A stretch of DNA of 20,000 nt from an uncultured virus (IMG/VR IMGVR_UViG_3300016457_000183) (IMGVR_UViG_3300016457_000183); one strand, 5' to 3'. Positions 1,593-19,727 are shown, numbered from the stretch's first letter. A program made the numbers and translations. The notes: generated by a model not told the origin, from the letters alone.

Positions 1593-1619
1593 CTCAATAA
1601 CCTCCTCAGTTACGGTTAA

Positions 1620-2078
1620 TTATTTGCCAGTAGAACCAGCGCCACCGCCCCGATTGTGTAAAGAAGCGGGCAACGCATCGACTGTCACTAACTCCAAACG
1701 CTCTAGTGGTAGGATCAGCATTTGGAGGACTCGCTCACCAGTGTGTACTACTAAAGCACTGTCAGAAAGGTTAGTCACAAAAGGCTCAACAAAGTCGAGG
1801 TAACCAGGATCGTAAACAGATAAACACAGTAAACCCTGTCGTCGCCAGGAAGACCTTGGTACAATTAAGGCAAAGTAGTTTCTTGGTAAAGCCATGCGAA
1901 AGCCGCAGTGCAACTTAACTGTTGCTTGACTAGGGATTAAGTAATCTCCGGGGGAATCACCAAGCGAAGGGGATACCGTGTGAGTAACCAAATCGTAGCC
2001 GGCGGAGAACTGCTCACCTCTACGAGGGACGTAAATCTTATCAAGGGCCTCAATCAAAATATCCTCTGGAAACAACAT
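1620..2078 (-). CDS. dut: Trimeric dUTPase-family protein (divergent motifs)
   Basis: Motifs SAGYDL (1), PRSS (2), YDPGY (3), GERVLQ (4), RGGGAGSTG (5); RBS AAAGGAGG upstream. Confidence 0.85.
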   Translation of the reverse strand: MLFPEDILIEALDKIYVPRRGEQFSAGYDLVTHTVSPSLGDSPGDYLIPSQATVKLHCGFRMALPRNYFALIVPRSSWRRQGLLCLSVYDPGYLDFVEPFVTNLSDSALVVHTGERVLQMLILPLERLELVTVDALPASLHNRGGGAGSTGK

Positions 2079-2092
2079 TACCTAACCTCCTT

Positions 2093-2917
2093 TCAGTTAC
2101 CTAAATAGTTAAACAGCGCAAAATTAAAATCCGATGACCAAGCAAACGCGACAGCGTTGTGTGCATGAATACTCTCGAAATGAGTAACTTTAATCAGGTA
2201 AGGGAGCGCACGCTTTTCGAGTTCAAGACCAATCAACCGAACCATATCCTCTACAAAAACAGGGTTCAAATAAGCACGCTCTGTTACGTATTTCTCATCA
2301 ACCCGCTTCAAGCATTCCCTGATTGGCGCGCTAGCGCCATTTTCGACCACACCCACTAAATCTTCAAACAGGACCTCGTTGTTGGGGGGAGTGGTAACTG
2401 TGACAGAGGCAACTGATCGCTGATTATGCGCTCCAAACTGAGAAATTTCCTTACTACAAGGACATAATGACGTGTAAGGAACGTCAACACTTATCAGTAT
2501 ATAATCAGGGTACCCTTTCATCCTAATACCTGTAACTTTAACTTCAACGGGTAGAAACTGATCGATCTCACTCACAGGAGCAGTAGTAGAAACTAAATAA
2601 GTAAAAGATACCTCTACTCGTGCATTCTCGTTCTCTAATCGACCTGTAACTGCACCTAACGTGTCGGAAACGTTTTGGGTTAACAACTTCTTCTCAGAAA
2701 AGACGTCCTGAATTACCTCGTAAAAACGCGACATATGAACGCCTTTCACTTCCGGGTTTAAAGAACAATACACATTAAAACTTCCAAGTGTTTGCATAAA
2801 TATTTCAGTAAGAGGGTAGTAAACGTAAACAGGGTACCGGATACCCTCGACTCCTACCCAAGGTAAGTAAACTTTAGGAAATCCTTCACTTCGTGATTGT
2901 ACATCAGGAACGCTCAT
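2093..2917 (-). CDS. folE2: GTP cyclohydrolase IB (FolE2)
   Basis: Motifs PDVQ, VGVEGIRYP, KGVHMSRF, TSLCPCSKEIS..GAHNQRS, LKRVDEKYVTERAYLNPVFVEDMVR, ESIHAHNA; RBS AAGGAGG; ATGA overlap with the primase stop. Confidence 0.95.
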   Translation of the reverse strand: MSVPDVQSRSEGFPKVYLPWVGVEGIRYPVYVYYPLTEIFMQTLGSFNVYCSLNPEVKGVHMSRFYEVIQDVFSEKKLLTQNVSDTLGAVTGRLENENARVEVSFTYLVSTTAPVSEIDQFLPVEVKVTGIRMKGYPDYILISVDVPYTSLCPCSKEISQFGAHNQRSVASVTVTTPPNNEVLFEDLVGVVENGASAPIRECLKRVDEKYVTERAYLNPVFVEDMVRLIGLELEKRALPYLIKVTHFESIHAHNAVAFAWSSDFNFALFNYLGN

Positions 2918-5107: not shown

Positions 5108-5400
5108 ACTACCTCCATAACACGTCGGAAGAACCCAACAACGGAACTTTTACGAGAAGCGTACTGCAAAATCAACCTCCAGTCACTGAAGGAAGTCTCT
5201 CGAATTATCTCCTCGAAATAACGAGGGGCCAACTGTCGTATACCATACTCTTTCAAATAATTATTCAACCGCATTAACTGCTTAACAGACTTAAGGTTGT
5301 CAAATAACTCTATACCAAAGCGGGGATAAACTCTTCTCAATACAAAAACTAGGTCTGCAGCTAGGTCCTGGAGCTCAAGCTGGGTCAAGTACGTGAACAT
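5104..5400 (-). CDS. Hypothetical protein (~98 aa) between the SF2 and DnaB helicases
   Basis: Fills the gap between two genes, and its stop overlaps the helicase ATG (ATGA). ATG 5400 is preferred over the ORF-track start at 5478. Confidence 0.6.
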   Translation of the reverse strand: MFTYLTQLELQDLAADLVFVLRRVYPRFGIELFDNLKSVKQLMRLNNYLKEYGIRQLAPRYFEEIIRETSFSDWRLILQYASRKSSVVGFFRRVMEVV

Positions 5401-6715
5401 CTCCAAACCTTTTATACAAAGCAATTCTGAAATTACCTTGTGATCGGAGAACAGGAGGGAACTGGTCCCATATATCAAAAAAAGCTAGTCGTTTACCCTC
5501 TTCAAATCGAAGACCACGTCCAATTCGTTGAATTATAGCAATCTGAGATCTCACACATGCCGCATTTATTATCGAATAAATCGAGTGATTATCAACGCCT
5601 TCCTCAATAACACGAGTGGCAACCAAAACACCTCTTTCTAACTTCCTAGCTGCCTCCCTTTCTTCCAACCTGGACTTATAACTCACAGTCAAACTCCCAG
5701 GTATCAAACTCTTTAACTGCTCTAAATGGTTCATTCGATGAACTAAGACCAAAACTACTTTCTGTGTACGTTGGAGCTCTAAATCACACAGTAATTTAAT
5801 CAAAGCGTTACGATCCTGATCTAAAGCTACGAACTGCTGATAGATCCAATTACTGTCTTGTAAGCGCCAACCAGGTACGGGATAACGCTTGTTTGAATAC
5901 TTTAGAACGTAAAAATCAACAGGGCACAACAACTTCTCCTTCAAACCCACAGAAAGATCTGCCACATCAACCCGGTCCCCAAAGAGAACTCTCAATTTCT
6001 CATCAAGTCGATCGCTCCGACCAGAAGGAGTCGCTGTAAATCCATACCAACGAGGCGCTTCTGTATGCATCAGAGTCTGAATATAACTAGGTGCTAGCGC
6101 ATGGACACACTCATCTACTAGTACCACATCAGCCTTAAAAGGAAGAGAACGTAAGCTCTGAAATGTAGCAACTACTATCTGACTATCGAACTCTTTTCGT
6201 CCTCCAAAAACGCGCCCGAACTCTAGTTGAGGCATCCAGTCCCGTAGTCGTTCATAATTCTGTTTAGCGAGGCCCTTGTTATGGACAAGGATCAAGACTT
6301 TAGAATTGCGGAAAGCATAAACAAGGGCTCCGATCAAGTAAGTCTTACCAATCGATGTAGGGCCCACTACAAGAGCTGATCGCTTGGAAAGAATGTTATC
6401 TAGCGCAGTTCGCTGAAATGGTTTAAGCTCGTAAGGAAGGTCATCTAAAGAGAGAGGAGTACATTCAGTAGTATCATCTTCAACTTCCAACTTGATGGAA
6501 GAAGGGAACAAACTCAGAAAGGGAGACGGGAAATAACGATTCTCAAAGAAATACTCCTTCTTATCGGAGGACCACGAAACGTGCCGTCCCTTATGAGGTT
6601 CATACTTAATCCTCATTGAAGAAACAGGAAATGAAAGTGCGCTCTTAACTAAGTCCTTCTCAACTTCAGAAGCTTCTATTACCTCAGCAAGCGGGCCCTT
6701 AACTCTAACTTTCAT
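5375..6715 (-). CDS. SF2 DExH-like helicase (UvsW/Rad25-like)
   Basis: Q-motif LKPFQ, GPTSIGKT, DECVH, FTATP, ATRVIEEGVD, QRIGRGLR; RBS AAGGAGG. Confidence 0.9.
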   Translation of the reverse strand: MKVRVKGPLAEVIEASEVEKDLVKSALSFPVSSMRIKYEPHKGRHVSWSSDKKEYFFENRYFPSPFLSLFPSSIKLEVEDDTTECTPLSLDDLPYELKPFQRTALDNILSKRSALVVGPTSIGKTYLIGALVYAFRNSKVLILVHNKGLAKQNYERLRDWMPQLEFGRVFGGRKEFDSQIVVATFQSLRSLPFKADVVLVDECVHALAPSYIQTLMHTEAPRWYGFTATPSGRSDRLDEKLRVLFGDRVDVADLSVGLKEKLLCPVDFYVLKYSNKRYPVPGWRLQDSNWIYQQFVALDQDRNALIKLLCDLELQRTQKVVLVLVHRMNHLEQLKSLIPGSLTVSYKSRLEEREAARKLERGVLVATRVIEEGVDNHSIYSIINAACVRSQIAIIQRIGRGLRFEEGKRLAFFDIWDQFPPVLRSQGNFRIALYKRFGDVHVLDPA

Positions 6716-7700
6716 TAAAAACCTCCTTTAGTGCATCTCCTCGTATCTCTAACGACTTTCCTTTCCTAACCACCTTGAAAAGGGCCATGTAAGAATAGTG
6801 ACTCTGACTAGTACTAGCTGAAAACATCAATGGGAACATAACACACTGTAATAGTTTAAAATAACGAAAATCGTTGAACAAAACAACTACGTACTTCACA
6901 AAGTTCTCATTCCGCTTAATCCAAGCCAGCACACGAAGAAATGAATGTCGTGAAACTAACCAAACAACAGCGCACGAGATCTTCAATAAAGGGAACTCGA
7001 TCTGGTTCCTACTTAAGTCATCCGAAACTACAGAAGACATAGCTTGTCGGATCTCTTCGCTCTCGGGGTCCGCAAGGTCGATCCAATAAAAAGCATCTGG
7101 CGCATACTTAAACGCCATCAAAGCCTTAATGTTGTAACACAACCAGCCAGACGATTCAATAGTAATGACACAGAAAGGGGTATTCTTACCCGTTCGAGAG
7201 ATCAGAGAGCGCAACGTGAGCGAAATACGTTTAACCTGATCGTCCGAAAACCATTCAAAGTAAGGAACGACTTGGGGTAACTTAGAATAATAGTTAATCA
7301 TATTTTCCTCTTTAAGAGCAAAGACGCGCCAATAACGCAGGACATCTTGATACAAGTACATCTTATAAACAACGCGTAACTGTCGCCTTATTATACGTTG
7401 CATTTTAAAAGGAAGATGTTTCGGAACTAGATAAGGGTAAAAGTACGAGACTTTCTCAGGTAACAAAACCTTATAAAAGAAGGGCATAGCATAAAAGTAC
7501 TCCTTTAAAAGAGTTTCAGGACGCCCAGCGTAACCAAATTCCGTCAGTGCGATTGACTCGCACTCAACGTGGAAAGGACAACTAAGACAGCGCGAGTCGA
7601 CAAAACTGAAAAACCCCCTACACATAGAGGGGTTCTCAATCTGATAAGCTCTCCTAGCTCCGTAATTTAGCAAATAAAATTCACCTCGCTGTAACATCAC
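6705..7700 (-). CDS. Hypothetical protein with N-terminal Cys cluster
   Basis: 331-aa ORF overlapping both neighbours (GTGATG overlap with the sbcC stop); Cys motif CRGFFSFVDSRCLSCPFHVEC. Confidence 0.75.
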   Translation of the reverse strand: MMLQRGEFYLLNYGARRAYQIENPSMCRGFFSFVDSRCLSCPFHVECESIALTEFGYAGRPETLLKEYFYAMPFFYKVLLPEKVSYFYPYLVPKHLPFKMQRIIRRQLRVVYKMYLYQDVLRYWRVFALKEENMINYYSKLPQVVPYFEWFSDDQVKRISLTLRSLISRTGKNTPFCVITIESSGWLCYNIKALMAFKYAPDAFYWIDLADPESEEIRQAMSSVVSDDLSRNQIEFPLLKISCAVVWLVSRHSFLRVLAWIKRNENFVKYVVVLFNDFRYFKLLQCVMFPLMFSASTSQSHYSYMALFKVVRKGKSLEIRGDALKEVFNES

Positions 7701-9097
7701 GCATGATGTGTTGTTAGAATTACCTGAGGGAACAGTTTAACCACTTCAGAAGACAACAAAGACATCAACAGACTAAAGAAGGTCTCATCCAAAGAATCCC
7801 CAATGGAGTCGAGGAGTAAAGGGAACTGTTCTACGCCATGAAGCGCGGAAGTGATATAGGAAACAGCAACACGGAATACAGTAGCAACAAAATCACGTTG
7901 ACCCACCGATAACTTGCCAAAAGGGCGTCCATCTACCACTAAATCGAAAGATGGTGTAAGAGTAACTTCTCTAAATGGTGAGCCAGTCAGTAACTTCGAC
8001 GCTAGTGTAGAAACCGAGTTTAATAAAGGAACAGACACACTGTCCAAAAAGTCTCGAAGAGCAGCGCGAGCTTGCAACACTGTTTGACTTCTTAACAACT
8101 GTTCACGGAGTTCGAGTAGACTAGCAAGAGAAGTCTCGCAAGCCTTCTTCCGCTCGATTAAAGCTAACATAGTCTTGTGATCTTCTACAGTAAGGCTTCG
8201 ATCAATTCGGCGACGCTGTTCCTCTGTTAACGTTACTGCCATAGGTAACTGTGCGAGTTGACTACGAACGTTGGCTAATTCCTCCTGGACCTGAGTAAGT
8301 CTACCCTGAACCACGCTACGATCAAATTGAGTAGAGCCACACACGGGGCAACTAGTACTCTGCACGTTACTAACTTTAGTAAGTAACTCGACCAAATAAG
8401 ACAAAGTAGTCATTCTCTGAGTGAGCTTCTGCCGTTCACTTACAACATCCGGCTTCTCCCGAGCTTCTTGCTCTAAGAGGTACAATTGTTCGCGATGAAA
8501 ATTCTCGCGGGAAACGTCAACAGCCGCTAGTTCATCTAACTCCTTCTGAAGAGAAGTAATCTGTTCCTCAGAAACAGTAGATACGCTACGAACTCCGGGA
8601 GAAGTTAACGAATTAATCGCCTCCGTTACTACATCGAGGCGAAGTAGCTCGGAAATCATCTTCCTTCGCAATGGAGGTTTAGCTTGAGCAAGTAGTGCTG
8701 CCTCACGCTGATTGCAACAAATCGTCGCCTTAAAAAGCGCCGCGGGAACAAGCTTATCCCTCCAAAAACCAGAAAGCTCGTTTAACTTCTTGATCTGAAC
8801 ATCGCCGTACTTAAAATTGACACGGGAAGGTTTCAAGTGACGTGTCAAGGAGAAAGGAACACCTCGAAATTCTCCTTCTAACTTAACAAGAGAAGCTCCA
8901 ACTGAGCCCTCTCTAATATAAGACTCTGTACTTTCGTCAAGGACTCTGGACCCGTAGATAGCAAAACTAATCCCTTCAATCAATGAAGACTTACCACCGC
9001 CATTAGGAAGCACCACAACGTTTAAGCCAGAAGTGAACGTAAATTCAGAGTCCTCATAACAGTTAAAATTCACTAATCGTACATTTGATATCTTCAA
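7697..9097 (-). CDS. sbcC: SbcC/Rad50/gp46-like SMC ATPase
   Basis: Walker A PNGGGKSS, coiled coil with CPVCG zinc hook, signature LSVGQR, Walker B LLLDS, H-loop LTTHH; TTG start overlapping the sbcD stop. Confidence 0.9.
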   Translation of the reverse strand: MKISNVRLVNFNCYEDSEFTFTSGLNVVVLPNGGGKSSLIEGISFAIYGSRVLDESTESYIREGSVGASLVKLEGEFRGVPFSLTRHLKPSRVNFKYGDVQIKKLNELSGFWRDKLVPAALFKATICCNQREAALLAQAKPPLRRKMISELLRLDVVTEAINSLTSPGVRSVSTVSEEQITSLQKELDELAAVDVSRENFHREQLYLLEQEAREKPDVVSERQKLTQRMTTLSYLVELLTKVSNVQSTSCPVCGSTQFDRSVVQGRLTQVQEELANVRSQLAQLPMAVTLTEEQRRRIDRSLTVEDHKTMLALIERKKACETSLASLLELREQLLRSQTVLQARAALRDFLDSVSVPLLNSVSTLASKLLTGSPFREVTLTPSFDLVVDGRPFGKLSVGQRDFVATVFRVAVSYITSALHGVEQFPLLLDSIGDSLDETFFSLLMSLLSSEVVKLFPQVILTTHHA

Positions 9098-10071
9098 GAC
9101 GACTTCCCTCCTAATGATTTTTCCTCTAAAGTCTCTATTGCTAACTTAATAGCAGCTGGTGAATACTTAGTTTTATTTGCCTGACAAAACTCACGGAACG
9201 AATCCAAAATAGAGCCTACTATGGGTAGATCACGTTCCAAGTCATCCTTCACATCAACTTCATCAGTGATTCGCACTGTAACATGCAGTGCGACCTTTCT
9301 AACCTGATTGACCCAATCCAGAGAAGCAGAGGAAGGAATCACGCATCTAACAACTGCATTTCTTACCATCTCGAGATCTTCTGGGGGCTTCGTTAGTTCA
9401 ACGAAAGGACGAGTTTCAATCTCAACAAACGTGCGTGACCTTGCAGTTCCGTCACTATAAAAAGTAAACCCGCAGGGAACTCCTAATTGATTAAAAGATA
9501 CCCTTTCCAAAGCTCCTGCATAAAACGTGTTCTGGGACACTTCAAATGGCATGTGAAGATCACCTAACATAGCGATTTTGTATTTATCAGGGACCTCGAT
9601 AGCAGAGTCTTTGAACTTAGGAACACGCCGGTCTCGAAGATGCCCAACAAGATAATCCGCCTCGAGGAAGTTGGGTGGAGACTCCGTATATGGAACACAG
9701 TAAAAGTAAGATCCCCGAACCTCATAAAGTGAAGGTTGTTCAAACAACACGACGTTTCGTAACAGTGATAACGTAACAAGGGGTGAACTGACTCGATGAA
9801 TAGAGTTGTCGTGATTTCCTGCTACTACAATTATAGGGCACTCAAATAGAGCTAGAGCGGATTGTGCTACCGCTATAGCCTGCGCGGGTGGTCTTCTCAC
9901 GTGAAACAAATCACCAGCAATTACTACAACATCAGGGTTTAACTCTCTGGCTTTCTCACAAGCAGTAACAAACGCTCGATAAAAGTCGTACTCACGTATG
10001 TTCTTGTTTCCATCAAACTTACCGTAAGAACTAAACCCCAAGTGTGCATCAGCCATATGAACGATACGCAT
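9094..10071 (-). CDS. sbcD: SbcD/Mre11/gp47-like metallophosphoesterase nuclease
   Basis: Motifs DAHLG, IAGDLFH, AGNHD, GDLH, YAGALERVSF; RBS AAGGAGG. Confidence 0.92.
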   Translation of the reverse strand: MRIVHMADAHLGFSSYGKFDGNKNIREYDFYRAFVTACEKARELNPDVVVIAGDLFHVRRPPAQAIAVAQSALALFECPIIVVAGNHDNSIHRVSSPLVTLSLLRNVVLFEQPSLYEVRGSYFYCVPYTESPPNFLEADYLVGHLRDRRVPKFKDSAIEVPDKYKIAMLGDLHMPFEVSQNTFYAGALERVSFNQLGVPCGFTFYSDGTARSRTFVEIETRPFVELTKPPEDLEMVRNAVVRCVIPSSASLDWVNQVRKVALHVTVRITDEVDVKDDLERDLPIVGSILDSFREFCQANKTKYSPAAIKLAIETLEEKSLGGKSS

Positions 10072-10264
10072 CTGAAACCTCCTTCGAGAGCAAAGTATGC
10101 TCTCTTCTCCATCTTAAACGTAATGGTGCTAAATGATAGACAAAACCACAAGCGGGACACTTAACACGCCAGCGATCTGCCCGATGCCAAAATTCGTTGC
10201 CGCAACCGCAGCGAATCAACAACAAGTTCGCGGAAGGTGTCCACGTAGCATCAACTATCTTCAC
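10049..10264 (-). CDS. Small Zn-ribbon protein
   Basis: Motif CGCG...CPACG; GTG start with GGAGG RBS. Confidence 0.7.
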   Translation of the reverse strand: MKIVDATWTPSANLLLIRCGCGNEFWHRADRWRVKCPACGFVYHLAPLRLRWRREHTLLSKEVSDAYRSYG

Positions 10265-10273
10265 GAGGCCCTC

Positions 10274-11044
10274 CTACGCCTCAATCCCTTCAAGTGAAAG
10301 GTACTTCTCAACCCAAACTAAACACTGACGAAGTGCTTTACTCTCTAGCTCGATAGTGTAATCTAACCACTCTACAATACCGTTAGAAGTCACTTGTTGA
10401 GGTTCAGGTGGTGAGAAGTGACGAAAAGGGAAAGAAGTGTCAAAACTTCTTACAAAAGGGAGCCGTAAATAAAACGGTATCTCTACATCAGGAGTAACTA
10501 GCTCCAATATGTGTACCGGCTTACTGTTGGTAAACTCCTCACAAAGGAACGCAAGAACAGCAAAACGCCCGAATAACTCTCGCAAACTCGCTGAATAAGT
10601 GGGTAGTACACCCGTTACTACCGATGTCTTACTAAGACCGAGTACACTAATATAAGGATTCTCTGCCATAGAAACTAAACACTGGAAAAAATCAGTAGCA
10701 TTCTTTCCCTGAGGTACACCCATAAGGGATAAATTCCCAAACAGAGAGTTACTTCTAACCTCTTTCACAAACTGAGAAACGACGTTTAAAGTCCCTTCCC
10801 TATCATTAGGAACGTAGGGTAGAACTACCTCGGAAACTTTTAACTCCCTTAGGGTAGGTAAAACATCATCGAAGTCACTCACACCAGCTAGTGTAAGCCA
10901 GTGTCCTTTCTTAGCTACTTTCTTATAAAAACGTTTACACTTCTTACTTTGCGTAATTACGTCGAAGAGTACTAAATGGTGGGAAATCCCAAACTGCGTA
11001 AGTAGCTCTAGGTGAGGTATAGGTGTGTCCAACATTAACCACAT
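10274..11044 (-). CDS. Degenerate TGT/DpdA-fold protein, paralogue of 17415..18113
   Basis: Colinear shared motifs with the 232-aa TGT-like ORF (VVLPYVPNDREGT, MGVPQG, SKPVHILE, SFDTSFP); RBS AAGGAGG; start at ATG 11044 or GTG 11047. Confidence 0.75.
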   Translation of the reverse strand: MWLMLDTPIPHLELLTQFGISHHLVLFDVITQSKKCKRFYKKVAKKGHWLTLAGVSDFDDVLPTLRELKVSEVVLPYVPNDREGTLNVVSQFVKEVRSNSLFGNLSLMGVPQGKNATDFFQCLVSMAENPYISVLGLSKTSVVTGVLPTYSASLRELFGRFAVLAFLCEEFTNSKPVHILELVTPDVEIPFYLRLPFVRSFDTSFPFRHFSPPEPQQVTSNGIVEWLDYTIELESKALRQCLVWVEKYLSLEGIEA

Positions 11045-11061
11045 CACTGACCTCCTTCTGA

Positions 11062-11679
11062 CTAAGCAATTATCCCTAACTCCTTCTTAATCTCCTTCAT
11101 CATCTCAGAAAACGAAGTAACAGTTAAATACTCTTCAGGAGAAGAAGAGCCTAAGGAAGTACTGGGGCAATAAGGTCTTTCTGGGCACAATAAGCAAACA
11201 AACCCGCTTACCACTTTATCAAGAACCCAGCACTCAGCAACAGGTAGAACCACTGACTTCTTAAGAAAGTGAGAAAAAACGCCTAAATAAAAAGCTTTGT
11301 CGATCAACTCTAACTCAGAAGGATCTCTTTTACGACGATATTCCATCACATCAAACGGGCGTAGAGGCCATGAACAAACGTTGCCTAACGTGGACGTAGT
11401 GATATTTATAACCCTCTCAGTTAAGCCACGTTTGGTTGCAACCCACGCCAGGTGACGGAGAGCAACAGCTTCGATCTGTCGAACTCGTTCGCGTGAGAGA
11501 TTGAGAATTTCGGCCAGTTCCTCTAGCTTGTGTGGACCTTGATTAGCGACGCGGATTGTACAATTACCGTACTCAGGAGTAGTACGCTCCCAGTAATAGC
11601 AATTAGTCTTAGTACAAGGCTGGGCTGAGGAGAAGCACGGCGGGTCCTTACTGAGATCAGGGAAATCAAGCTCTGTCAC
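11062..11679 (-). CDS. Sigma-70 region-4 HTH protein with Cys-rich flanks
   Basis: KLEELAEILNLSRERVRQIEAVALRHL matches the sigma region 4.2 pattern; N- and C-terminal Cys clusters; GTG start with RBS GAGGAGG. Confidence 0.8.
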   Translation of the reverse strand: MTELDFPDLSKDPPCFSSAQPCTKTNCYYWERTTPEYGNCTIRVANQGPHKLEELAEILNLSRERVRQIEAVALRHLAWVATKRGLTERVINITTSTLGNVCSWPLRPFDVMEYRRKRDPSELELIDKAFYLGVFSHFLKKSVVLPVAECWVLDKVVSGFVCLLCPERPYCPSTSLGSSSPEEYLTVTSFSEMMKEIKKELGIIA

Positions 11680-11786
11680 CGTCTTCTCCTCCTCACTACA
11701 ATACTTCCTTCTTCAAAGACCACTTCAAAAGAGTACCCCCTACTCCGTTTCTTCGAAGTCAACGTCTTTAAAAACTGCTCGATCAA
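11676..11786 (-). CDS. Possible 36-aa bridging peptide MIEQFLKTLTSKKRSRGYSFEVVFEEGSIVVRRRRR
   Basis: The TTG start overlaps the upstream TGA (TTGA) and its TGA overlaps the downstream GTG (GTGA), so it exactly tiles the gap; no RBS. Confidence 0.35.
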   Translation of the reverse strand: MIEQFLKTLTSKKRSRGYSFEVVFEEGSIVVRRRRR

Positions 11787-12373
11787 CCTTGAGGAGGGTT
11801 TTCAGTGTCTTGTGGTTGATTCTGACGTACTTGTTGCAATACTTTGGTCGCATACACATGGGAAACGCCGCAGGCCTTTCGTATCTCTCCTGCTTTCGCG
11901 TTAGGATGTGCCTTCAAATACTCCAAAATCTCTTTCTTCTTATTACCTCTCATAGCATTACCTCCTTTAACCTTACCTTTTTCATCCGACAAAGAGTTAC
12001 TGTTATGTTCAACTTTATCTTTAGAAATGTCAACTTTTTTCTCCGCAGAAGTAGGTTGAGAGCTTTTATCAGCTTTTTTCCTGGTCTTCTGCCCTTCCTT
12101 CTTCTCTTTTTTCCTCTTATCAGGGATTAACGTGTCAAGTTCGAGTTTACGAGAAAGTGTTGCTTTCTTGAAAAAAGCGCTATCGTACACTACATCATCA
12201 ACATCCAAATCGGCGATCCCAACCTCTTTAGCAACCTCACAAGTTGCCCTACGTGAGCACGCGAAACACATCAAAGCAGTGTGGTTTCGTTTCAAAACGG
12301 GACACCGAACTAACCGAGAAACGTGGTCCCTAAACTCTTCCTTAACATCCTCCTTACTCAACAGACGAATCAT
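11783..12373 (-). CDS. Hypothetical protein: Cys-cluster N-terminus, Lys-rich linker, C-terminal HTH
   Basis: ATG 12373 with RBS AAGGAGG; CPV...CFAC...C; HTH-like tail EILEYLKAHPNAKAGEIRKACGVSHVYATKVL. Confidence 0.75.
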   Translation of the reverse strand: MIRLLSKEDVKEEFRDHVSRLVRCPVLKRNHTALMCFACSRRATCEVAKEVGIADLDVDDVVYDSAFFKKATLSRKLELDTLIPDKRKKEKKEGQKTRKKADKSSQPTSAEKKVDISKDKVEHNSNSLSDEKGKVKGGNAMRGNKKKEILEYLKAHPNAKAGEIRKACGVSHVYATKVLQQVRQNQPQDTENPPQG

Positions 12374-12392
12374 AAACAACCTCCTTACATAG

Positions 12393-14426
12393 TCAACAAG
12401 TTGAATAACCGCATCTAGAACAACTCTTACAACCTTGTCCGTTACGTGTCAGAGTGTAATTCTGACACTTAGGACATAAGTCAAATAGTTCTTCTACCTT
12501 CCCACTTGATTGTAAAGTATCACTAAGAGCCTTAGCGACGGCGTCACAGATCGAGGTAACACGGCCAACACGACTGTTCACATAGAAGTCTCCTGTTTCA
12601 ATACCCGATAAAGACTTCATAATCACTTCAGGGCGGGTTCCTGACCTAAGAGCAAGAGAAACAAGTCTCCCTAAACCCATAGCTAGTCCATTAACAACAT
12701 TCCCACTCTTACCGGTAGACACAAATACCTCAATGGGCTTCCCAGATGTTGATCTATTAACCGTGATGTAGATATTATTCAGGCCTTTAAACTTGTAAGT
12801 TTGTCCGATCAGCACGTCCCTTTCAGGTTCGTCTGCTTCAACAATCGATTCCAAAGCACAACCTCTACGGTACACAGTTAACCCCTTAAGACGATATTTT
12901 CGCGCTGTGTAGATAATCTCTTCTATCTCTTCAACAGTAGTTTCCTTCGGGACGTTGATGGTCTTACTCGCTGATGTATGACTTATTTGTTGAACGGTAG
13001 AAACAACCTTTATCTGCTCTTCAGGGGGTATAAAAGGTAGCGTAGTAGGATTGGAGGGAGTCACTGAAGACTTAAGAATAACGGTCTGAAATTCATTTTC
13101 ACTATTAAGAAATTGCCTTTTAACCTGAAAAGATTCAAGAGGCTCTAATCCCGTAGACACACAGCGTAGGAACTGAGATACTGAACCAGTAGGCGCTTGA
13201 GATAGAGTAGTCGTGTTCCAAAATTTCCTGCTCCTCTTAGTGTAACCAACAAGTGAAAGATGTTCATCTTTGTACGTCGGGTCCCACTCCTTCTCAACTT
13301 TAGTCGAGAGGGCCCACTCATTCGACGCAATAAGTGAACCGCGGGCAAGAGCGGTGTACATCTCGGAAATTCTGTCGACATCAGTGTACTTGTATCCTTT
13401 CTTAAAGAGGTACTCTGCAACTCCTGTTAGACCAATACCAACAGGGTGAATCTGGTCAACTCGCTCTCGGAGCTTATGATAAAGCCACTTTGGCTCCTTA
13501 GGTAAGCCCATATTGTGCTTCAAGGTTAAATACAAAATTGCGTTCCCAATATGAGTCATGTAATAACCCAACGCCTCAAAATCCGAGACTGACTCTGCAG
13601 AAAGGGCGTTACCTGTTAAAAGATGGCAAACACTGAAGGGAGGTGAAGCATACTCGGCACAAGGATTCACGTAACGTACAAGAGGTTTGAGCTTAGGAGG
13701 ATAAGGTGAATGCTCGGCAAGTACGTCGGGGAAGAGTAACCCGGGGTCACCAGAAGTCCACATCCCTAACGCGATCTCCTTAATCAGATCACGCTGCTCC
13801 CAAAAATCGCCAAAGGCATTCACAGAAATATTGATTGACCATAAATCACGCCGATCTCTCTTAAGCCGAACATACTTAAAAATGTCTGGGTGGTTGTAAT
13901 CAAGCTGACCTAGCATTGCCCCTCGTCTTTTACCGCCTGCGGCAATACTCTTTGAAGTAGCTTCAAACATAGGAACGAAACCAACAGGGCCTGAACTCAC
14001 TCCCTGTGCTTGATCAACAGCACTTCCTTCTGGGCGCAGAGAAGAGAAGTCTAACCCAACACCACCAGCATACTGAAAGATGCTAGCGCAAGCTTCAATA
14101 TAACGCAGGATGTCCTTAGTTGAATCGGGAATAGGTCCTAACGGGAAACAAGAATAAAATCCGCCTCTTCTTGTATAAGGGTTACCTAGATTCATTAAAA
14201 CGGGGGTTGCAAACGTGAACTTCCTATTACGTGCCATTTGTAACGCTTCTGATAATAGGTCGTTCGAGACAGGGTACTTACGCGAGAGGATGAAATTAGT
14301 AATTCTATCAATTATATCTTCATAAGTCTTCTCCAAACGTTCGGAAGTCTTTGGATGACGAATAGAATATCTTTGATAAATTAGAGCACGCTCGAAGTCA
14401 TCCCAGTCAGTAATTACGTCCGTCAT
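12393..14426 (-). CDS. nrdJ: Class II (adenosylcobalamin-dependent) ribonucleotide reductase with fused TSCPD domain and Zn ribbon
   Basis: Motifs SCF, GGVGLDFSSLRP.G, GGKRRGA, NPCAE, APTGSVS, SKTINVP, KGLTVYR; TSCPD-like IYITVN..PIEVF..GKSG..GRLVSLALRSG..SICDAVA; terminal CPKC..CSRCGYSTC; no ATP cone. Confidence 0.9.
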   Translation of the reverse strand: MTDVITDWDDFERALIYQRYSIRHPKTSERLEKTYEDIIDRITNFILSRKYPVSNDLLSEALQMARNRKFTFATPVLMNLGNPYTRRGGFYSCFPLGPIPDSTKDILRYIEACASIFQYAGGVGLDFSSLRPEGSAVDQAQGVSSGPVGFVPMFEATSKSIAAGGKRRGAMLGQLDYNHPDIFKYVRLKRDRRDLWSINISVNAFGDFWEQRDLIKEIALGMWTSGDPGLLFPDVLAEHSPYPPKLKPLVRYVNPCAEYASPPFSVCHLLTGNALSAESVSDFEALGYYMTHIGNAILYLTLKHNMGLPKEPKWLYHKLRERVDQIHPVGIGLTGVAEYLFKKGYKYTDVDRISEMYTALARGSLIASNEWALSTKVEKEWDPTYKDEHLSLVGYTKRSRKFWNTTTLSQAPTGSVSQFLRCVSTGLEPLESFQVKRQFLNSENEFQTVILKSSVTPSNPTTLPFIPPEEQIKVVSTVQQISHTSASKTINVPKETTVEEIEEIIYTARKYRLKGLTVYRRGCALESIVEADEPERDVLIGQTYKFKGLNNIYITVNRSTSGKPIEVFVSTGKSGNVVNGLAMGLGRLVSLALRSGTRPEVIMKSLSGIETGDFYVNSRVGRVTSICDAVAKALSDTLQSSGKVEELFDLCPKCQNYTLTRNGQGCKSCSRCGYSTC

Positions 14427-14429
14427 TCA

Positions 14430-14903
14430 CTACCTCCTTCGAATTAGTTGGATATCGTCTCGTAAACCGAGCTCAGTCAATACTCGGGAGAGGTAAGTCC
14501 TCTGAATACCTAACCTTCTGGCTATCTCTGTAATGGTTAACCCTTTTCGTAGATAAGCTTGAATGAACTCTCGTTGCATTCTCTTAACAAACTCACGCCA
14601 AGTAACACCTTCTTCAATCAAACTATCAAAGTACGAATCGATACTCGACTCTATAGGTACTATATCACGTAGTCTATCAATATCCCGCAAAATCTCCACA
14701 ACTACGTTTACAACCTTATTGTCAATTACAGCGTTTTGAAATTGGAAGATATTAACGCCCCCCTTACGTAGTCCAGGAGACAGTTGTAAGTCCATATTCT
14801 GCTTAGCAACTATGTTCTCAGACGGAGGGCTACTAACAACACTGAGTAAAGAGTAAACTTTTTCACGTAGCTGAACTAATGCATTCTCAACTCTATCGCG
14901 CAT
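14430..14903 (-). CDS. Fis/NtrC-type HTH DNA-binding protein
   Basis: C-terminal WREFVKRMQREFIQAYL..ITEIARRLGIQRTYLSRVLTELGL resembles the Fis-family HTH. Confidence 0.7.
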   Translation of the reverse strand: MRDRVENALVQLREKVYSLLSVVSSPPSENIVAKQNMDLQLSPGLRKGGVNIFQFQNAVIDNKVVNVVVEILRDIDRLRDIVPIESSIDSYFDSLIEEGVTWREFVKRMQREFIQAYLRKGLTITEIARRLGIQRTYLSRVLTELGLRDDIQLIRRR

Positions 14904-14904
14904 A

Positions 14905-15519
14905 CTATCTAACCTTTACGTAGTACCTATGTTGGGGGGTTCTTCCGTACTCAAGAAGTGCTTCTCGATGTTTCTTCGAGAGAAACCCCAAATTTGACGT
15001 TAAATCGTAAACTTGCCACCCAGGGTTCTCGTTTAACAATGAGAGTAATGCTTCTTTACGCAATTCCTTTGCCAATATCATAGCCAGTCGAAGAACGTAA
15101 ACATACATACTACCGCGAAGTATGGGGAAGCAATCAGCGGGTAATTCAGGAATTAGAGGATCCGAAACAACGATCAAGGAAGGATACTCTTGTACCAACT
15201 GCTCGACTACTCTTAACTTTGATCTACGAATAGCTTCATCTACATTACCAATACGATTGATCTCATCTCCAGCTACAGTATCAACTATAGGGGTCACCAT
15301 TTGTCGTAAGGTGGAAGGCGCTTTAGAAGCTGTGGGAGTATGGTGCACATCAATTACTACGCCACAAGTAACAAGAGGCCCAAAAGCTGCTTCCTTCCCA
15401 TCTGTGTAAAGACCAACAATGTTACTATACCCAACTGAGAAGAACAGCCGCTCTAGGGAAAAATTCTCTAAGCCTTGAACGAGTTCTTCGTTAACACGAG
15501 CTATGCGTTTAAAATTCAT
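14905..15519 (-). CDS. RNase HII-fold protein lacking catalytic acidic residues
   Basis: Segments IVGLYTDGKEAAFGPLVTCGVVI, ILRGS..LAMILAKELR and YDLTSNLGFLSKKHREALLEYGRTPQHR follow the RNase HII pattern end to end; GGAG RBS. Confidence 0.8.
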   Translation of the reverse strand: MNFKRIARVNEELVQGLENFSLERLFFSVGYSNIVGLYTDGKEAAFGPLVTCGVVIDVHHTPTASKAPSTLRQMVTPIVDTVAGDEINRIGNVDEAIRRSKLRVVEQLVQEYPSLIVVSDPLIPELPADCFPILRGSMYVYVLRLAMILAKELRKEALLSLLNENPGWQVYDLTSNLGFLSKKHREALLEYGRTPQHRYYVKVR

Positions 15520-15607
15520 TTAAGCACTCCTGCGCAAGGCTAACGAAGTCATTATCATAGTAACTGCAAAGAAGGGCAAGAGCAAAACTAAATTTTTCCT
15601 AAAGGTT

Positions 15608-15856
15608 TCAAAGGGTTCCGGTACCACAAAGTCGACGATGGACTCTTCGTAAAATGGACGACGGTGGAAGGAAAACAAACTCAAACAAGTGAGACAAGTC
15701 AAAGCACGTTTTACCAATTCTCAACTTACCAAAATAGTGACAGAAAGGGCAAATACTATATGTTAATCGATACCACCCGATTAATCGGTAAGTAGGAAAC
15801 TTCTCAACTATATAACCACACCTAGGACAAAAAACTACATCTCTAGTTGCTGGCAT
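15608..15856 (-). CDS. Small Zn-ribbon protein
   Basis: Motif CPRCG...CPFC; no clear RBS. Confidence 0.55.
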   Translation of the reverse strand: MPATRDVVFCPRCGYIVEKFPTYRLIGWYRLTYSICPFCHYFGKLRIGKTCFDLSHLFEFVFLPPSSILRRVHRRLCGTGTL

Positions 15857-15864
15857 AGCACGAG

Positions 15865-15919
15865 AAAAAAGCCGCCCTTCGCAACCTCTAATTAAGGCGC
15901 TACTTTACCCGTGGGCGGC
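15865..15919 (-). terminator. Terminator-like structure: 7-bp GC stem with a 35-nt internal region, followed by U6
   Basis: GCCGCCC (15871-15877) pairs with GGGCGGC (15913-15919); A6 at 15865-15870 gives the U tract on the minus strand. Confidence 0.5.
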
Positions 15920-15939
15920 GGCCGGGGAAAGGAGGAGGA

Positions 15940-16161
15940 TCAACCTCTACGACGCGCTTCTTCCCGCTTAATCAAGCGCTCAAGGTAGAACTCTGCCTTT
16001 TTTAGGTCCTCTAAAGGAGCACCTTTCCATTTATACCTAGCAAGATATTTTACTACATTCCCCTCAAGGAAATCAAATCCTTGATCTTCAATAAAATCAA
16101 TTACCTCAATCTTACCACGAGTGTAGTGTTTAGGATGACGAACATTCTCCAATAATGCCAT
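15940..16161 (-). CDS. DUF3310 family protein (T7 gp1.7-like putative nucleotide kinase)
   Basis: Motif VRHPKHY..IEVIDFI..FLEGNVVKYLARY..KG..EDLKKAEFYL. Confidence 0.88.
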   Translation of the reverse strand: MALLENVRHPKHYTRGKIEVIDFIEDQGFDFLEGNVVKYLARYKWKGAPLEDLKKAEFYLERLIKREEARRRG

Positions 16162-16170
16162 GTGTACCTC

Positions 16171-16437
16171 CTATTCCCATTTCTTAGCTGAAGTTTCCTG
16201 TCGAATCCTAATGATCTCAATCAAATTCTTATTGAACAAGTACTCGTTAAGGTGCTTCCTTCTGATCTCCTCCTTAACGGCGGCTTTCAAAGCTTTCAGG
16301 TAACATTTACAACACAAATCAAAAGTTTCATATACATCCTCCACGGATCCAGCAGCATCGGCACGGCGGTCATATGAAAAACTAACTCGTTGCACGTCCT
16401 TTTGCGTACCGCAAACATCACAAACTGTAATTTGCAT
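16171..16437 (-). CDS. Small Zn-finger protein
   Basis: Motif CDVCG...FDLCCKC; RBS AGGAGG. Confidence 0.75.
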   Translation of the reverse strand: MQITVCDVCGTQKDVQRVSFSYDRRADAAGSVEDVYETFDLCCKCYLKALKAAVKEEIRRKHLNEYLFNKNLIEIIRIRQETSAKKWE

Positions 16438-16456
16438 GGGAGCCTCCTAGGTAAAA

Positions 16457-16618
16457 TTAAACCTTCTTGGTTAACTTTTGTAGTGCTTTAAAAATCGCTC
16501 TCTCTAAACACAATACCTCAAAACGACTTCCCTTAACAACTAACGTTAACACAGAATCGAACATACCGGGTACCTCACAAGGTTTGTCCTTACGCTTTAG
16601 TTTAAGAACCTCAATCAT
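16457..16618 (-). CDS. Hypothetical protein (53 aa)
   Basis: ATG 16618 with an AGGAGG RBS, directly after the queC stop; start reassigned from 16651. Confidence 0.6.
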   Translation of the reverse strand: MIEVLKLKRKDKPCEVPGMFDSVLTLVVKGSRFEVLCLERAIFKALQKLTKKV

Positions 16619-16620
16619 CC

Positions 16621-17385
16621 TCAATCCTCCTTGTTCCGAAGAAAAGAGCAAGGATCTTTATCGTAGATAGTAGGATCCTCAACTCCTGCTTTCTGAAAAG
16701 CTTCAGCACGTTCAACACAAGTACCGCAGGTGCCACAATGTTTTGGTGGCTCCCCTTTATAACAGGACCACGTTAACTCAAACGGACAATTAAATCTATT
16801 CCCGACAGAAACAACTTCCCATTTCGCAAGATGGGCAAAAGGAGCTAATAACTTTACCTTCCTATCAGAAGCAAGAAAAATTGTTTGTGACATATACCTC
16901 AGGTAGTCAATTCTGCAATCAGGATAAATAAAATGGTCACCTTCATGAGCTGCGATAGCAACGAACTTCTTCCCTAAGGACTCCGCAAGGGCGAGTCCGT
17001 AGGAGATCATTACCGTATTCCTTCCAGGAACTACAGTCTGACGCATACTTTCTTCGGTATAGTACCCTTCTGGTACATCTACTTGATCGTCTAATAACGC
17101 AACTCCTTTAGAAACCAATCGCTTCAGAGACGAAAGATCAACTACATAAACCCTCTCTTTCTCAATTCCAAAATGCTCAACCAACCGGAGGAAGGCGTGA
17201 TATTCAGCTTCATGATGAGTAGAACCATAATCAAAGTGAATCAAAGTAAGGTCCCAACCTAGGTTGAGTAACATCGAGATTAAACTCGAAGAATCAAGGC
17301 CGCCAGAAGATAACACAACAGCACTTCTTTGCGTTGGTTCAATATCATAAACTTCCGCAGGCCGTTCACAAATCGTCCATTCCAT
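16621..17385 (-). CDS. queC: 7-cyano-7-deazaguanine (preQ0) synthase QueC
   Basis: PP-loop SGGLDS, FDYG, TVVPGRN, YPDCR, Zn site TWSCY..HCGTCGTCVER; RBS AGGAGG. Confidence 0.95.
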   Translation of the reverse strand: MEWTICERPAEVYDIEPTQRSAVVLSSGGLDSSSLISMLLNLGWDLTLIHFDYGSTHHEAEYHAFLRLVEHFGIEKERVYVVDLSSLKRLVSKGVALLDDQVDVPEGYYTEESMRQTVVPGRNTVMISYGLALAESLGKKFVAIAAHEGDHFIYPDCRIDYLRYMSQTIFLASDRKVKLLAPFAHLAKWEVVSVGNRFNCPFELTWSCYKGEPPKHCGTCGTCVERAEAFQKAGVEDPTIYDKDPCSFLRNKED

Positions 17386-17414
17386 CTAACAACCTCCTTT
17401 CTAAGGAAACGAGC

Positions 17415-18113
17415 TCAAGTTTGAATCAATTGAAAAAATTCTTCTACTGCCTTCTGCATCGATTTAAAAGAAACTCTATCATTAAAAAAATCGATCCGAT
17501 CATCCAGACCTACCTTTCCTAACGCTTTACGTGTTGGATAAGAAGTATCCAATGACTCAATAGGTACTCCCGAATCAAAAATTTCGGGTAGCTCACTAGG
17601 GTCAGGACACCCTAAAATGTGAACTGGTTTAGAAGTCAACTTAAATGAATAAACTGACAGAAATAATCTGTTAGGATACATCACTCGAGGTATACCAACC
17701 AAATGAAAACGGTTCTCAAACTCAGAATAAAGGATACGTAAACACCGTGTCCACTCGATGATGCTGTGTCCTTGAGGTACAATCATAACTTTAGTATCCG
17801 CAGGAAGTGAGTGTTTGAAAAACTGACGAGTGAGTTTAATGGTACCCTTACTATCACTATACACATCTGGTGCAACCACTACGTCTGGGCGTAACGTTTG
17901 GATGAGCTCTATGTACTTCTTAATGTCAATAGAAGCTCCTTGTTCATAAGCACCGTTGTCCAGATAGAGAGGGAGTTGAGAACGGTGTTCGTGTACGAAG
18001 TTACGGTAAGTCTCATTTTCAAACCAAGGAGCTATAGCGAAGATATAATCACTAAACTCAACTTGAAGCTCAAGGCTTTTCAAAGGAACTTCGAAGGAAA
18101 ACTTACAAGTCAT
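17415..18113 (-). CDS. TGT-fold guanine transglycosylase (DpdA-like), catalytic residues apparently intact
   Basis: LDNG (D52), APDV (D83), VPQG (Q114), HILG and LDTS (D189) occur in the order of the TGT DSG / D / QG / HxLG / D motifs; directly upstream of queC; RBS AAAGGAGG. Confidence 0.78.
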   Translation of the reverse strand: MTCKFSFEVPLKSLELQVEFSDYIFAIAPWFENETYRNFVHEHRSQLPLYLDNGAYEQGASIDIKKYIELIQTLRPDVVVAPDVYSDSKGTIKLTRQFFKHSLPADTKVMIVPQGHSIIEWTRCLRILYSEFENRFHLVGIPRVMYPNRLFLSVYSFKLTSKPVHILGCPDPSELPEIFDSGVPIESLDTSYPTRKALGKVGLDDRIDFFNDRVSFKSMQKAVEEFFQLIQT

Positions 18114-18378
18114 AAATGGACCTCCTTTTTTCTGTACTTACTAAAGCTGAGACCTCACAAAATAGACGCTCAGATGCGCTTATTTTACGCGAATTTTACG
18201 CAGGTACATACCTAAGCAATAGTTTGATATAGCCTAGATAGGTACCCACGATTTAAGTGCTGAAGGTACGCGCGATTCTGCACAAATTCGCGAAAATTTC
18301 GCGATGGAAGTACGCAGGTTTCCCAACTATAGAGACTTCTCCAACAACTAACACACACTAGCCTCTTTTTCAACAATT

Positions 18379-18587: not shown

Positions 18588-18666
18588 GCCAGTTTTACGT
18601 AGAAGCCTGCCGGTTTTACGTAGAAGCCTGCCGGTTTTGTGTAAAGGCATGCCAGTTTTACGTAGA
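18588..18666. repeat. Four tandem 21-bp iteron-like repeats (putative replication origin)
   Basis: gccagttttacgtagaagcct / gccggttttacgtagaagcct / gccggttttgtgtaaaggcat / gccagttttacgtaga; the period is about two helical turns; next to the rep gene and an AT-rich tract. Confidence 0.85.
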
Positions 18667-18869: not shown

Positions 18870-19727
18870 CTACGTAGGTGGGTACCGCCAGGCCGGGTTA
18901 TATGTGAACCTCTCAGGTTTCTGCCAGGAGTACTTATGGTAACCAAATTCGTCATCATGATGCCAATTAGTAATAAGGCCCGTTCGCTTTAACAAATCAA
19001 ATGCCCTAAAAATACTCTCACGTTTACGGGAGGCTCGTATAGGTAAATCTCGAAATACATACCGCATAAGACGATCTTCTCTAATAGCAGTGTATTTTTG
19101 TCCTTGGATCCAAACTCCTAACAAAATAGCCATCGGATTTGATAAATCAAGAATAGGAGCGATGTTGATGTGAAACCCTTTCTGACAAGCTTCCCAAAAA
19201 TCTCCATCAACAGCGAATCCAACCGAAAGTCTTTTAGTATGCCGCCCTCTACCTCGTAAGAGATCAACCTCATTATATTTACCACCATCATAGTAATACA
19301 AAGCAGCATGCCAGAGAAGTCTTCGAATTTCTTTTACTCTACTCTTCCAAGACAAAACGTACATTATACTTGCGACGTTCTTGATACTCTCGAAGATCTC
19401 AGGCCCGCTATAGAACTCTCTCTTTCGATACCGCTTCACAAAAGTACTCCATTGACAAACTGTTACCTTTGTAGGAATGAAGTGACCCTCTTGAGTCGCC
19501 CACTCTCGATCAAGCACCTCTTCTTGTGTGAACACAAAAAGAATGCTCAGGAACGTTTGTAAGTCAAACGCACTGAACATGCGGGAGTTCATAATCTCTA
19601 CTTTCTCAAGGTCACTCCAACCTGCGAATTCAGAGAGTCCTTCTTTGATCACTTTCCGAGAAGTTGTGACTGGAAATGCATCTAAAAAATCTTTAGGAAC
19701 CTTTACAATCATGTCAGACGACATCAT
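18870..19727 (-). CDS. Plasmid-type replication initiator (TrfA/RepA-like winged helix)
   Basis: Pattern FDLQTFLSIL, LSNPMAILLGVWI, IREDRL, IFRAFDLLKRTGLI is typical of iteron-binding Rep proteins; adjacent iterons; RBS GGAG. Confidence 0.65.
   Translation of the reverse strand: MMSSDMIVKVPKDFLDAFPVTTSRKVIKEGLSEFAGWSDLEKVEIMNSRMFSAFDLQTFLSILFVFTQEEVLDREWATQEGHFIPTKVTVCQWSTFVKRYRKREFYSGPEIFESIKNVASIMYVLSWKSRVKEIRRLLWHAALYYYDGGKYNEVDLLRGRGRHTKRLSVGFAVDGDFWEACQKGFHINIAPILDLSNPMAILLGVWIQGQKYTAIREDRLMRYVFRDLPIRASRKRESIFRAFDLLKRTGLITNWHHDDEFGYHKYSWQKPERFTYNPAWRYPPT

Follow-up and report, generated by a model that had tools for sequence, protein, structure and literature searches.

The stretch of DNA examined here (the window) consists of 20,000 nucleotides from the uncultured virus IMGVR_UViG_3300016457_000183 of IMG/VR, and it encodes two proteins related to the tRNA-guanine transglycosylases (TGT) and to the DpdA transglycosylases. 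P0002 (232 residues; 17415-18113, minus strand) is a canonical transglycosylase of the DpdA3 family with a minimal TGT fold, and on the evidence of its translation, Pfam and tblastn matches, orthologues and AlphaFold2 (AF2) model it is presumed to be the active enzyme. P0001 (256 residues; 10274-11044, minus strand) is a DpdA3-family paralogue with a degenerate active site and is presumed to be non-catalytic, as judged from its translation, its match to phrog_20335, the alignment of its orthologues and its AF2 model. The reading that we favor, with a probability of about 0.5, is that the phage encodes an active transglycosylase (P0002) together with a retained, non-catalytic accessory paralogue (P0001). 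A physical heterodimer of the two proteins is a more tentative proposal within this reading, and we consider it rather unlikely.

The two open reading frames (ORFs) had been singled out in a first-pass annotation of the DNA, made from the sequence alone, as TGT/DpdA-fold paralogues. Both were found at the coordinates given above, and every motif that had been quoted for them is present in the translations. P0002 contains LDNG, VVAPDVYSDSKGT, MIVPQG, SKPVHILG and SLDTSYP, and the corresponding motifs in P0001 are L-AGV, VVLPYVPNDREGT, MGVPQG, SKPVHILE and SFDTSFP. The ORF finder placed the start of P0001 at a GTG (11047), which gives 257 residues, but the ATG at 11044 is the likely start because all four orthologues begin at this next codon (MW...). 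In a single BLASTP comparison the two sequences share 30% of their residues across 158 aligned columns (E-value 6e-9), and both match phrog_20335 (7.6e-10 for P0001 and 2.8e-5 for P0002). This similarity is well beyond chance and, together with the TGT-type models obtained for both, it demonstrates that P0001 and P0002 are paralogous. Their net charge is alike, with an isoelectric point (pI) of 5.9 for each and a family median of 6.2. The Zn motif of TGT takes the form of a C-terminal Cys cluster plus a His. The lack of this site had also been noticed in the first pass, and indeed CxCxxC and CxxC motifs were found in neither protein, the four Cys residues of P0001 and the three of P0002 all being scattered.

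P0002 is matched by the Pfam family DUF6610 (PF20314) with 33 bits (cut-off 27) over profile positions 35-159 of 198, as well as by the TGT family with an E-value of 0.005, and P0001 has no Pfam match. The DUF6610 match is found in only 11 of 114 family members at E 1e-3. The best known relatives of P0002 are the DpdA3 proteins of the Campylobacter phage CP220 group (28% identity, E 9e-9, tblastn), followed by proteins of Bacillus BSP7-type phages. Those of P0001 are found in Chryseobacterium phage MA9V-3 (E 7e-13) and Cellulophaga phage phiST (DpdA3 CGPG_00065, E 1e-10), and also in the Weizmannia phage Youna2. The name DpdA3 comes from the work of Hutinet, Cui and colleagues, where it denotes a subfamily associated with complete replacement of G (PMC10516641). 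One profile built from the relatives of both proteins finds the DpdA3 of phiST, CP220, MA9V-3, BSP7 and Youna2 with E-values of 1e-47 to 1e-62. Judged by these matches, both P0001 and P0002 belong to the short, Zn-less DpdA3 family of phiST and CP220. The DpdA3-like family is large: searching with a profile made from 20 relatives yields 5505 cluster representatives at E <=1e-3 and 1035 at 1e-30.

The fold assignment is consistent with these results. A 114-row family profile matches the bacterial DpdA of structure 7UI4 with an E-value of 4.2e-6. The AF2 model of P0002 has a predicted local distance difference test (pLDDT) score of 97.2, and the top 50 Foldseek matches are all TGT or ArcTGT, with a best E-value of 6.6e-7. 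The model superimposes on ArcTGT with a Z score of 16.0 (root-mean-square deviation (rmsd) 3.1, 213 aligned residues) and on the bacterial DpdA 7UI4 with a Z score of 15.1 (rmsd 3.1 A, 217 residues). The model of P0001 has a pLDDT of 93.3, and 49 of its top 50 Foldseek matches are TGT, with a best E-value of 2.1e-6; it aligns with TGT with a Z score of 15.2 (rmsd 3.3, 216 aligned residues). The TIM barrel of TGT type that the first-pass annotation had expected is therefore modeled confidently for both proteins.

The roles of the active-site residues have been determined for bacterial DpdA, which uses Asp95 as its general acid/base and Asp256 as its nucleophile, recognizes the base through Asp130 and His181, and has Gly206/207 in its substituent-binding loop (PMC10164549). 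Either of the substitutions D95A and D256A abolishes guanine exchange by that enzyme (PMC10164549). The alignment of the family profile to 7UI4 backs the assignment of the substituted positions to these catalytic residues, and the assignment agrees with the published roles. The counterparts in P0002 are D52, D83, Q114, G168 and D189, so that one copy is canonical at all five key sites, as had been proposed, and these five residues together with G115 and H165 do not vary in any of the 10 orthologues, whose identity goes down to 36%. The DpdA3 proteins of phiST and CP220 are canonical at the key sites as well (LDN, PD, QG, HxLG and D[TS]S). P0002 is thus predicted to be active. The five sites of P0001 are A, Y78, Q113, E182 and D203, and His179 is also kept. 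The other copy is therefore altered in the way first described, having neither the acid/base Asp nor the base-binding Asp nor the Gly of HxLG, while the Asp of DTS is retained.

How unusual this is was determined in a survey of 176 aligned family sequences, which comprise the best 150 of the 5505 representatives plus earlier matches, minus three fragments or duplicates. The five sites read DDQGD in 161 sequences and DDHGD in nine, and the other six consist of P0001 itself (AYQED), its 80% identical orthologues P0004, P0026 and P0027 (VYQEN), and its 54% identical orthologues P0005 and P0028 (DTQGN). Other degenerate lineages may exist beyond the best 150 representatives inspected. Several motifs are invariant in the five orthologue lineages of P0001: GVPQG.N, KP.HIL, LPF.RSF..S.PFR and a basic K..KRFYKK helix.

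A tree of 166 rows was computed with FastTree, with local supports and rooted at its midpoint; 11 fragments, near-duplicates and fused long forms were omitted, and phiST and CP220 were added. P0001 falls in a clade of eight rows (support 99) and P0002 in a separate clade of 13 rows (support 99), and their last common node is the root of the whole tree. A recent duplication within the phage was considered and is ruled out by this topology. Within its clade, P0001 groups as ((P0001, P0004), P0005), then with (P0006, P0007), and then with P0041, P0058 and P0048. The degenerate P0001, P0004 and P0005 are nested among the canonical P0006, P0007, P0041, P0048 and P0058, and since the distant members of the clade are canonical, the loss of catalytic residues is recent, lineage-specific and stepwise. 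On this branching, the base-recognition Asp and the nucleophile would thus have been lost first, and the acid/base Asp and the Gly after them.

The setting of the two genes suggests a pathway in which both could act. The window makes up the left-hand 20 kb of the genome, a large one, of a tailed phage. It is the start of the 137,043-bp viral record G001, which CheckV rates as complete, and its positions 1-18374 are the reverse of G000:C1:1-18374, where C1 is a 96.9-kb contig that was binned into a 1.2-Mb metagenome-assembled genome with 8.8% contamination. P0002 is encoded 30 nt upstream of the gene for QueC, the 7-cyano-7-deazaguanine synthase (16621..17385, minus strand; Pfam QueC 9.1e-54; NCBIfam TIGR00364, 156.4 bits against a cut-off of 150.3). 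A FolE2-type GTP cyclohydrolase I is encoded at 2093..2917 on the minus strand (Pfam GCHY-1 9.3e-70; NCBIfam NF010200, 227.2 bits, cut-off 215). A QueE-like radical-SAM gene lies at G000:C1:22358-23044, and its best NCBIfam matches are all QueE models; FolE2 and QueC score above their NCBIfam cut-offs and this gene below them. With FolE2 providing the first step, these three proteins would allow the phage to make a 7-deazaguanine base from GTP. The Pfam matches of the window and of contig C1 include no QueF or Gat-QueC family. DpdL is a paralogue of QueD. Because QueC is present, no PTPS match was found in G001 (DpdL might have given one) and QueF and Gat-QueC are missing from the matches, the likeliest base is preQ0 or its amide ADG.

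It is proposed that P0002 exchanges guanine for this base. In the published view the exchange would take place in phage DNA, although for the whole DpdA3 family the substrate may be either DNA or a free nucleotide. A thymidylate-kinase-type gene (PF02223) was not found in the 137-kb record; neither this absence nor the mild acidity of both paralogues decides between the two substrates. In CP220 (L010, 4859-7352) the DpdA3 gene sits between an HD-domain/P-loop gene and a thymidylate-kinase-like gene, and in BSP7 (L045) and Youna2 (L046) it overlaps the start of the PolA gene, a context that fits a link to nucleotide metabolism and replication. P0001 would be a long-diverged member of the family that in this lineage has lost the acid/base Asp, the base-recognition Asp and the Gly of HxLG, and the loss of these three residues implies that it cannot carry out base exchange by the double-displacement mechanism of TGT and DpdA. 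Purifying selection has nevertheless kept it as a folded TIM barrel in which much of the rim of the pocket is intact, and it would serve as a non-catalytic accessory of the same pathway, either as a subunit that partners P0002, in the manner of QTRT2 with QTRT1, or as a binder of the base or of the modified DNA.

The distribution of the pair was surveyed with a hidden Markov model of the family. Two copies were found in G001, and one copy was found in each of the five complete GenBank DpdA3 phages checked (phiST, CP220, MA9V-3, BSP7 and Youna2) as well as in each of the partial records G002, G003, L021, L047 and L048. The co-occurrence that the first-pass annotation had wished to see surveyed across viruses is thus present in G001 and does not extend to the five complete phages. 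L021 and L015 (the latter within G002) are syntenic with the window but stop before the position of QueC and P0002, so they are uninformative about the pair. Both of these independent contigs end at the equivalent of window position ~15,900 (~15860-15940), just before the block of DUF3310, QueC and P0002, which may point to a break that recurs in assembly or to a variable segment. Sequencing run X5 covers the whole stretch, including both genes, at ~98.6% identity, and run X6, from a third study, contributes short, low-depth pieces within both genes; both are strains of the same phage species with at least 95% identity. Additionally, the longest contig listed is 60,504 bp for members of the P0004 cluster as well as for members of the P0008 cluster, and it is 98,709 bp for members of the P0005 cluster as well as for members of the P0009 cluster. 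The equal values suggest that these are the same contigs, and the pair is therefore probably present in two related phages. The longest contigs of P0006 and P0007 (62,916 and 17,848) match no listed cluster of the P0002 clade, which proves nothing.

Further searches added little to this picture. No relative was found when genome contigs were scanned with the P0001-clade alignment A1 and with the alignment A2, and a scan of metagenome contigs with A1 returned L021 only. P0041 as the query against viral contigs gave no match, and P0048 gave two loci with one family copy each. Among 200 relatives of the host genome of the bin, only Tgt-like genes of ~380 residues with weak E-values were found, and no second pair. 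That no such phage pair is known, as had been suspected, is borne out for DpdA3 as far as we looked: Supplementary Data S1 of PMC10516641 covers 91 viruses and lists two DpdA3 proteins for none of them. In a literature search for a DpdA pseudoenzyme or a dead DpdA paralogue, nothing on such a paralogue was seen among the titles and abstract openings listed. As far as we looked, a dead DpdA3 helper would be new to the described family, while the DpdA3-type 7-deazaguanine system itself is already known.

The evolution of P0001 bears on the favored reading from both sides. When P0001 is compared with its 80% identical orthologue in the syntenic L021, the nonsynonymous and synonymous divergences are dN 0.112 and dS 1.04, which gives an omega of 0.108 (Nei-Gojobori). 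The degenerate residues common to both copies (Y, E and no Asp at the first site) predate their split, so this constraint was measured after the degenerate state had been fixed in the common ancestor. Across the five orthologue lineages, whose identity goes down to 44%, the frame of 256 codons stays open and is free of frameshifts and stops. The presumed partner is better kept, with P0002 orthologues that are 95% and 68% identical. Several results count against a retained function and in favor of an alternative in which P0001 is a relic that became redundant after a P0002-type enzyme, newly acquired or already present, replaced it, lost its catalytic residues and is drifting toward loss with at most a marginal role. 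P0001 is the fastest-evolving gene of its neighborhood, and its omega is the highest of 11 genes, the ten neighbors ranging from 0.027 to 0.090. Its identity to L021 is the lowest as well (80% versus 86-96% for the ten neighbors), as is its identity to the L015 orthologue (58% versus 60-84% for 14 neighbors), for which dN/dS is unusable because dS is saturated. In strain X5, which comes from another study, P0001 has seven synonymous and seven nonsynonymous codon changes and three neighboring genes together have 14 synonymous and one nonsynonymous (Fisher p 0.014). One of the changes in P0001 puts Glu in place of the Gly of the FGR motif, a Gly that does not vary among the five P0001-clade orthologues (A1); the Arg of this motif is the same throughout the wider alignment A3. 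The position of the old nucleophile is D, N and N in the three degenerate lineages, which differ at the key sites and have no single new pattern in common; this fits relaxed constraint where the active site used to be and offers no hint of a new function. A relic is nevertheless unlikely, given the low omega over a dS of ~1.0, the intact frame, the long motifs that are invariant in all five lineages and the confident model. The gene is clearly constrained and not decaying, yet it is clearly more relaxed than its neighbors. Of the two signs of decay named in the first-pass annotation, frameshifts are absent from the five lineages and a dN/dS of 0.11 speaks against free drift, but the gene is the most relaxed of its neighborhood.

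The remaining alternatives concern what P0001 does. It could be an active enzyme with a changed substrate or chemistry, acting on another base or on a nucleotide or as a hydrolytic glycosylase, with Asp203, Tyr78 and Glu182 as its catalytic set. Gln113, His179, Asp203 and the strands that line the pocket are kept, the Tyr and Glu at the altered sites are common to P0001 and its 80% orthologue, and the DpdA family is known for shifts in base specificity (PMC10516641). However, the position of Asp203 is occupied by Asn in both the 80% and the 54% orthologues, the latter has Thr and Gly in place of Tyr and Glu, and no catalytic set is conserved across the degenerate lineages. In DpdA, removal of the acid/base Asp is enough by itself to stop exchange (PMC10164549), and outside P0001 and its close orthologues none of the 176 family sequences deviates at the three Asp positions. 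We therefore regard this alternative, and with it the second enzyme of different base specificity that had been put forward in the first pass, as quite improbable. A stand-alone, non-catalytic reader or shield is another possibility, in which P0001 would bind a flipped 7-deazaguanine or the free base and would protect the modified DNA from host glycosylases or type IV enzymes directed at 7-deazaguanines, or sense or buffer the base pool, without binding P0002. The fold and the pocket rim have been kept under purifying selection without the catalytic residues, and the gene lies amid DNA repair and replication genes (SbcCD, helicases) and does not adjoin P0002. A recent preprint also reports that host glycosylases attacking 7-deazaguanine DNA exist and select against the modification (bioRxiv 10.1101/2025.10.29.685425). 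The slight acidity of P0001 (pI 5.9), though, is unusual for a DNA binder even if the basic helix is conserved, and the loss of the base-recognition Asp argues against tight binding of a guanine-like base. A role of this kind is, in our estimate, improbable. The favored reading of an active P0002 with an accessory P0001 has difficulties of its own. The two genes are non-adjacent, lying 6.4 kb apart with about a dozen genes in between, and their presence on one contig was verified for one phage species only. No evidence of contact between the proteins was obtained; a complex prediction of P0002 with P0001, using a 114-row alignment for each, gave a score of 0.00 and a mark of 0.32, which says nothing either way. 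The Zn subdomain of TGT contributes to dimer contact, and it is absent from both proteins. The pathway is incomplete as annotated, QueD/PTPS (PF01242) not having been found in the 137-kb record; the QueD step may be supplied by the host or by an unrecognized gene. The only PTPS gene of the bin (G000:C33:8137-8541) is on another contig, C33, which may belong to the host or to a phage.

Several known systems resemble the pair in part. The DpdA3 proteins of phiST (CGPG_00065) and CP220 (gp056) are likewise short (~230-270 residues), Zn-less and of TGT fold (PMC10516641), and in DpdA3 phages, as in this phage, the gene lies beside FolE/QueE/QueC-type and replication genes. The described phages have one copy each in the five cases checked, whereas this phage has two from deeply separate clades, one of which is without the sites kept by phiST and CP220. 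According to PMC10516641, the activity of DpdA3 has never been shown in vitro or in E. coli, and the authors report failed attempts. The closest functional parallel is the QTRT1/QTRT2 pair, which consists of a catalytic TGT-fold subunit and a catalytically stripped paralogue, the same kind of asymmetry that is seen between P0002 and P0001. In QTRT2 the catalytic Asp residues are replaced (Asp279 to Glu and Asp105 to Cys) and the base pocket is degenerate, and the protein is an obligate partner of QTRT1 (PMC6165067). QTRT2 has a Zn subdomain and is part of a heterodimer, acting on tRNA, that has been shown biochemically. P0001 and P0002, in contrast, both lack the Zn subdomain, would act on a non-tRNA substrate, appear to have arisen as a pair independently within DpdA3 and are only putative partners.

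Bacterial DpdA, the DNA preQ0 insertase of structure 7UI4, has the same fold and catalytic logic as P0002, and its activity requires a partner that is not a transglycosylase, the ATPase DpdB (PMC10164549). It differs in length (413-436 residues), in its DNA-binding insertions and in having a His where the family of P0002 has Gln, and DpdB is an unrelated ATPase rather than a dead paralogue. General Pfam scans of the window and of the rest of contig C1, in which no dedicated model was used, gave no family named DpdB. P0002 also passes the gathering score of DUF6610, the Pfam family linked to DpdA4 (Halovirus HVTV-1 HVTV1_69). DpdA4, however, has ~387 residues and is found in archaeal viruses (PMC10516641), P0001 and most of the relatives have no DUF6610 match, and the nearest named relatives are DpdA3. 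The only row with two DpdA-family proteins among the 91 of the table in PMC10516641 is Mycobacterium phage Knocker, which has DpdA1 and DpdA4. These come from two separate subfamilies, and the main text of that paper does not take up the pair.

DpdA3 is the subfamily linked to complete guanine replacement, and its authors report that their tests of it in an E. coli model failed (PMC10516641). A phage with one canonical copy and one copy that is under selection but catalytically stripped is a ready-made natural experiment on how DpdA3 works. If the dead copy is a needed subunit, it can be asked whether single DpdA3 genes fail in E. coli for lack of a partner. If it binds the modified base or DNA, it would add a novel kind of phage protein to the arms race over 7-deazaguanine DNA, and in either case the pair would be a clear example of pseudo-enzyme evolution in viruses. 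If it is only a slowly fading duplicate, it would be a minor footnote to a known system. A bolder version, which we hold to be doubtful, is that this lineage has re-invented the QTRT1/QTRT2 arrangement within DpdA3, with a dead partner needed for efficient replacement, or that the dead copy is a new reader or shield against host glycosylases or type IV restriction.

All real genes of the window are on the minus strand. P0002 and QueC are followed by small ORFs, including a DUF3310 protein, and by an RNase HII-like protein, helix-turn-helix proteins and a ribonucleotide reductase. Next are a protein with a sigma-70 region-4 domain, P0001, an ORF of 71 residues, SbcD, SbcC, helicases, DnaB and a primase, and the order ends with FolE2, a dUTPase-fold protein and a fusion of uracil-DNA glycosylase (UDG), exonuclease and PolA. 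Just outside the window are gp32-like, RecA-like and the QueE-like radical-SAM genes, and then head, tail and glycosyltransferase genes. The 71-residue ORF (10049-10264, minus strand), just downstream of P0001, has weak zinc-ribbon matches. It shows zero synonymous and seven nonsynonymous codon changes in X5 and an omega of 0.069 against L021, and a counterpart is undetectable in L015; either it is fast-evolving or its true frame or extent is different. The dUTPase-fold protein (1620..2078, minus strand; Pfam dUTPase 3.4e-13) lies between FolE2 and the UDG-PolA gene, and every NCBIfam dut model scores below its cut-off.

Upstream of P0002 is a gap of ~750 bp in which the listed ORFs look non-coding and which contains a 21-bp unit repeated 3.8 times (18588-18666). 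G000:C1 terminates nearby (window position 18374), and an ORF of 285 residues without a family match comes next (18870-19727). The repeat region is possibly an origin or iteron region. The phage contig of 97 kb is the largest contig of bin G000, and the 200 relatives of the host genome of this bin have sizes of 0.3-0.9 Mb, the single genome of the same genus being 0.8 Mb. Since the bin has 1.2 Mb and 8.8% contamination, with the phage contig as its largest, and the relatives are smaller, an assignment of the host from the bin is unsafe.

The DNA polymerase gene lies partly in the window (3-1592, minus strand) and continues to G000:C1:16783-19905. It encodes a fusion of 1040 residues with a UDG-superfamily domain, a 3'-5' exonuclease and PolA, and it contains an intein-splicing domain near residues 751-955. 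A second intein is found in an epimerase-like gene (C1:88547-90688), and a LAGLIDADG endonuclease gene is located at C1:52368-53453. The ribonucleotide reductase gene (12393-14426, minus strand) is uninterrupted in the window. In L015 (2110-2610) and L021 (2278-2757) the match to this protein is in two pieces that are split at residue 256/257 with ~480-500 nt between them, which points to an insertion at this site in both relatives, be it an intein, an intron or a homing element.

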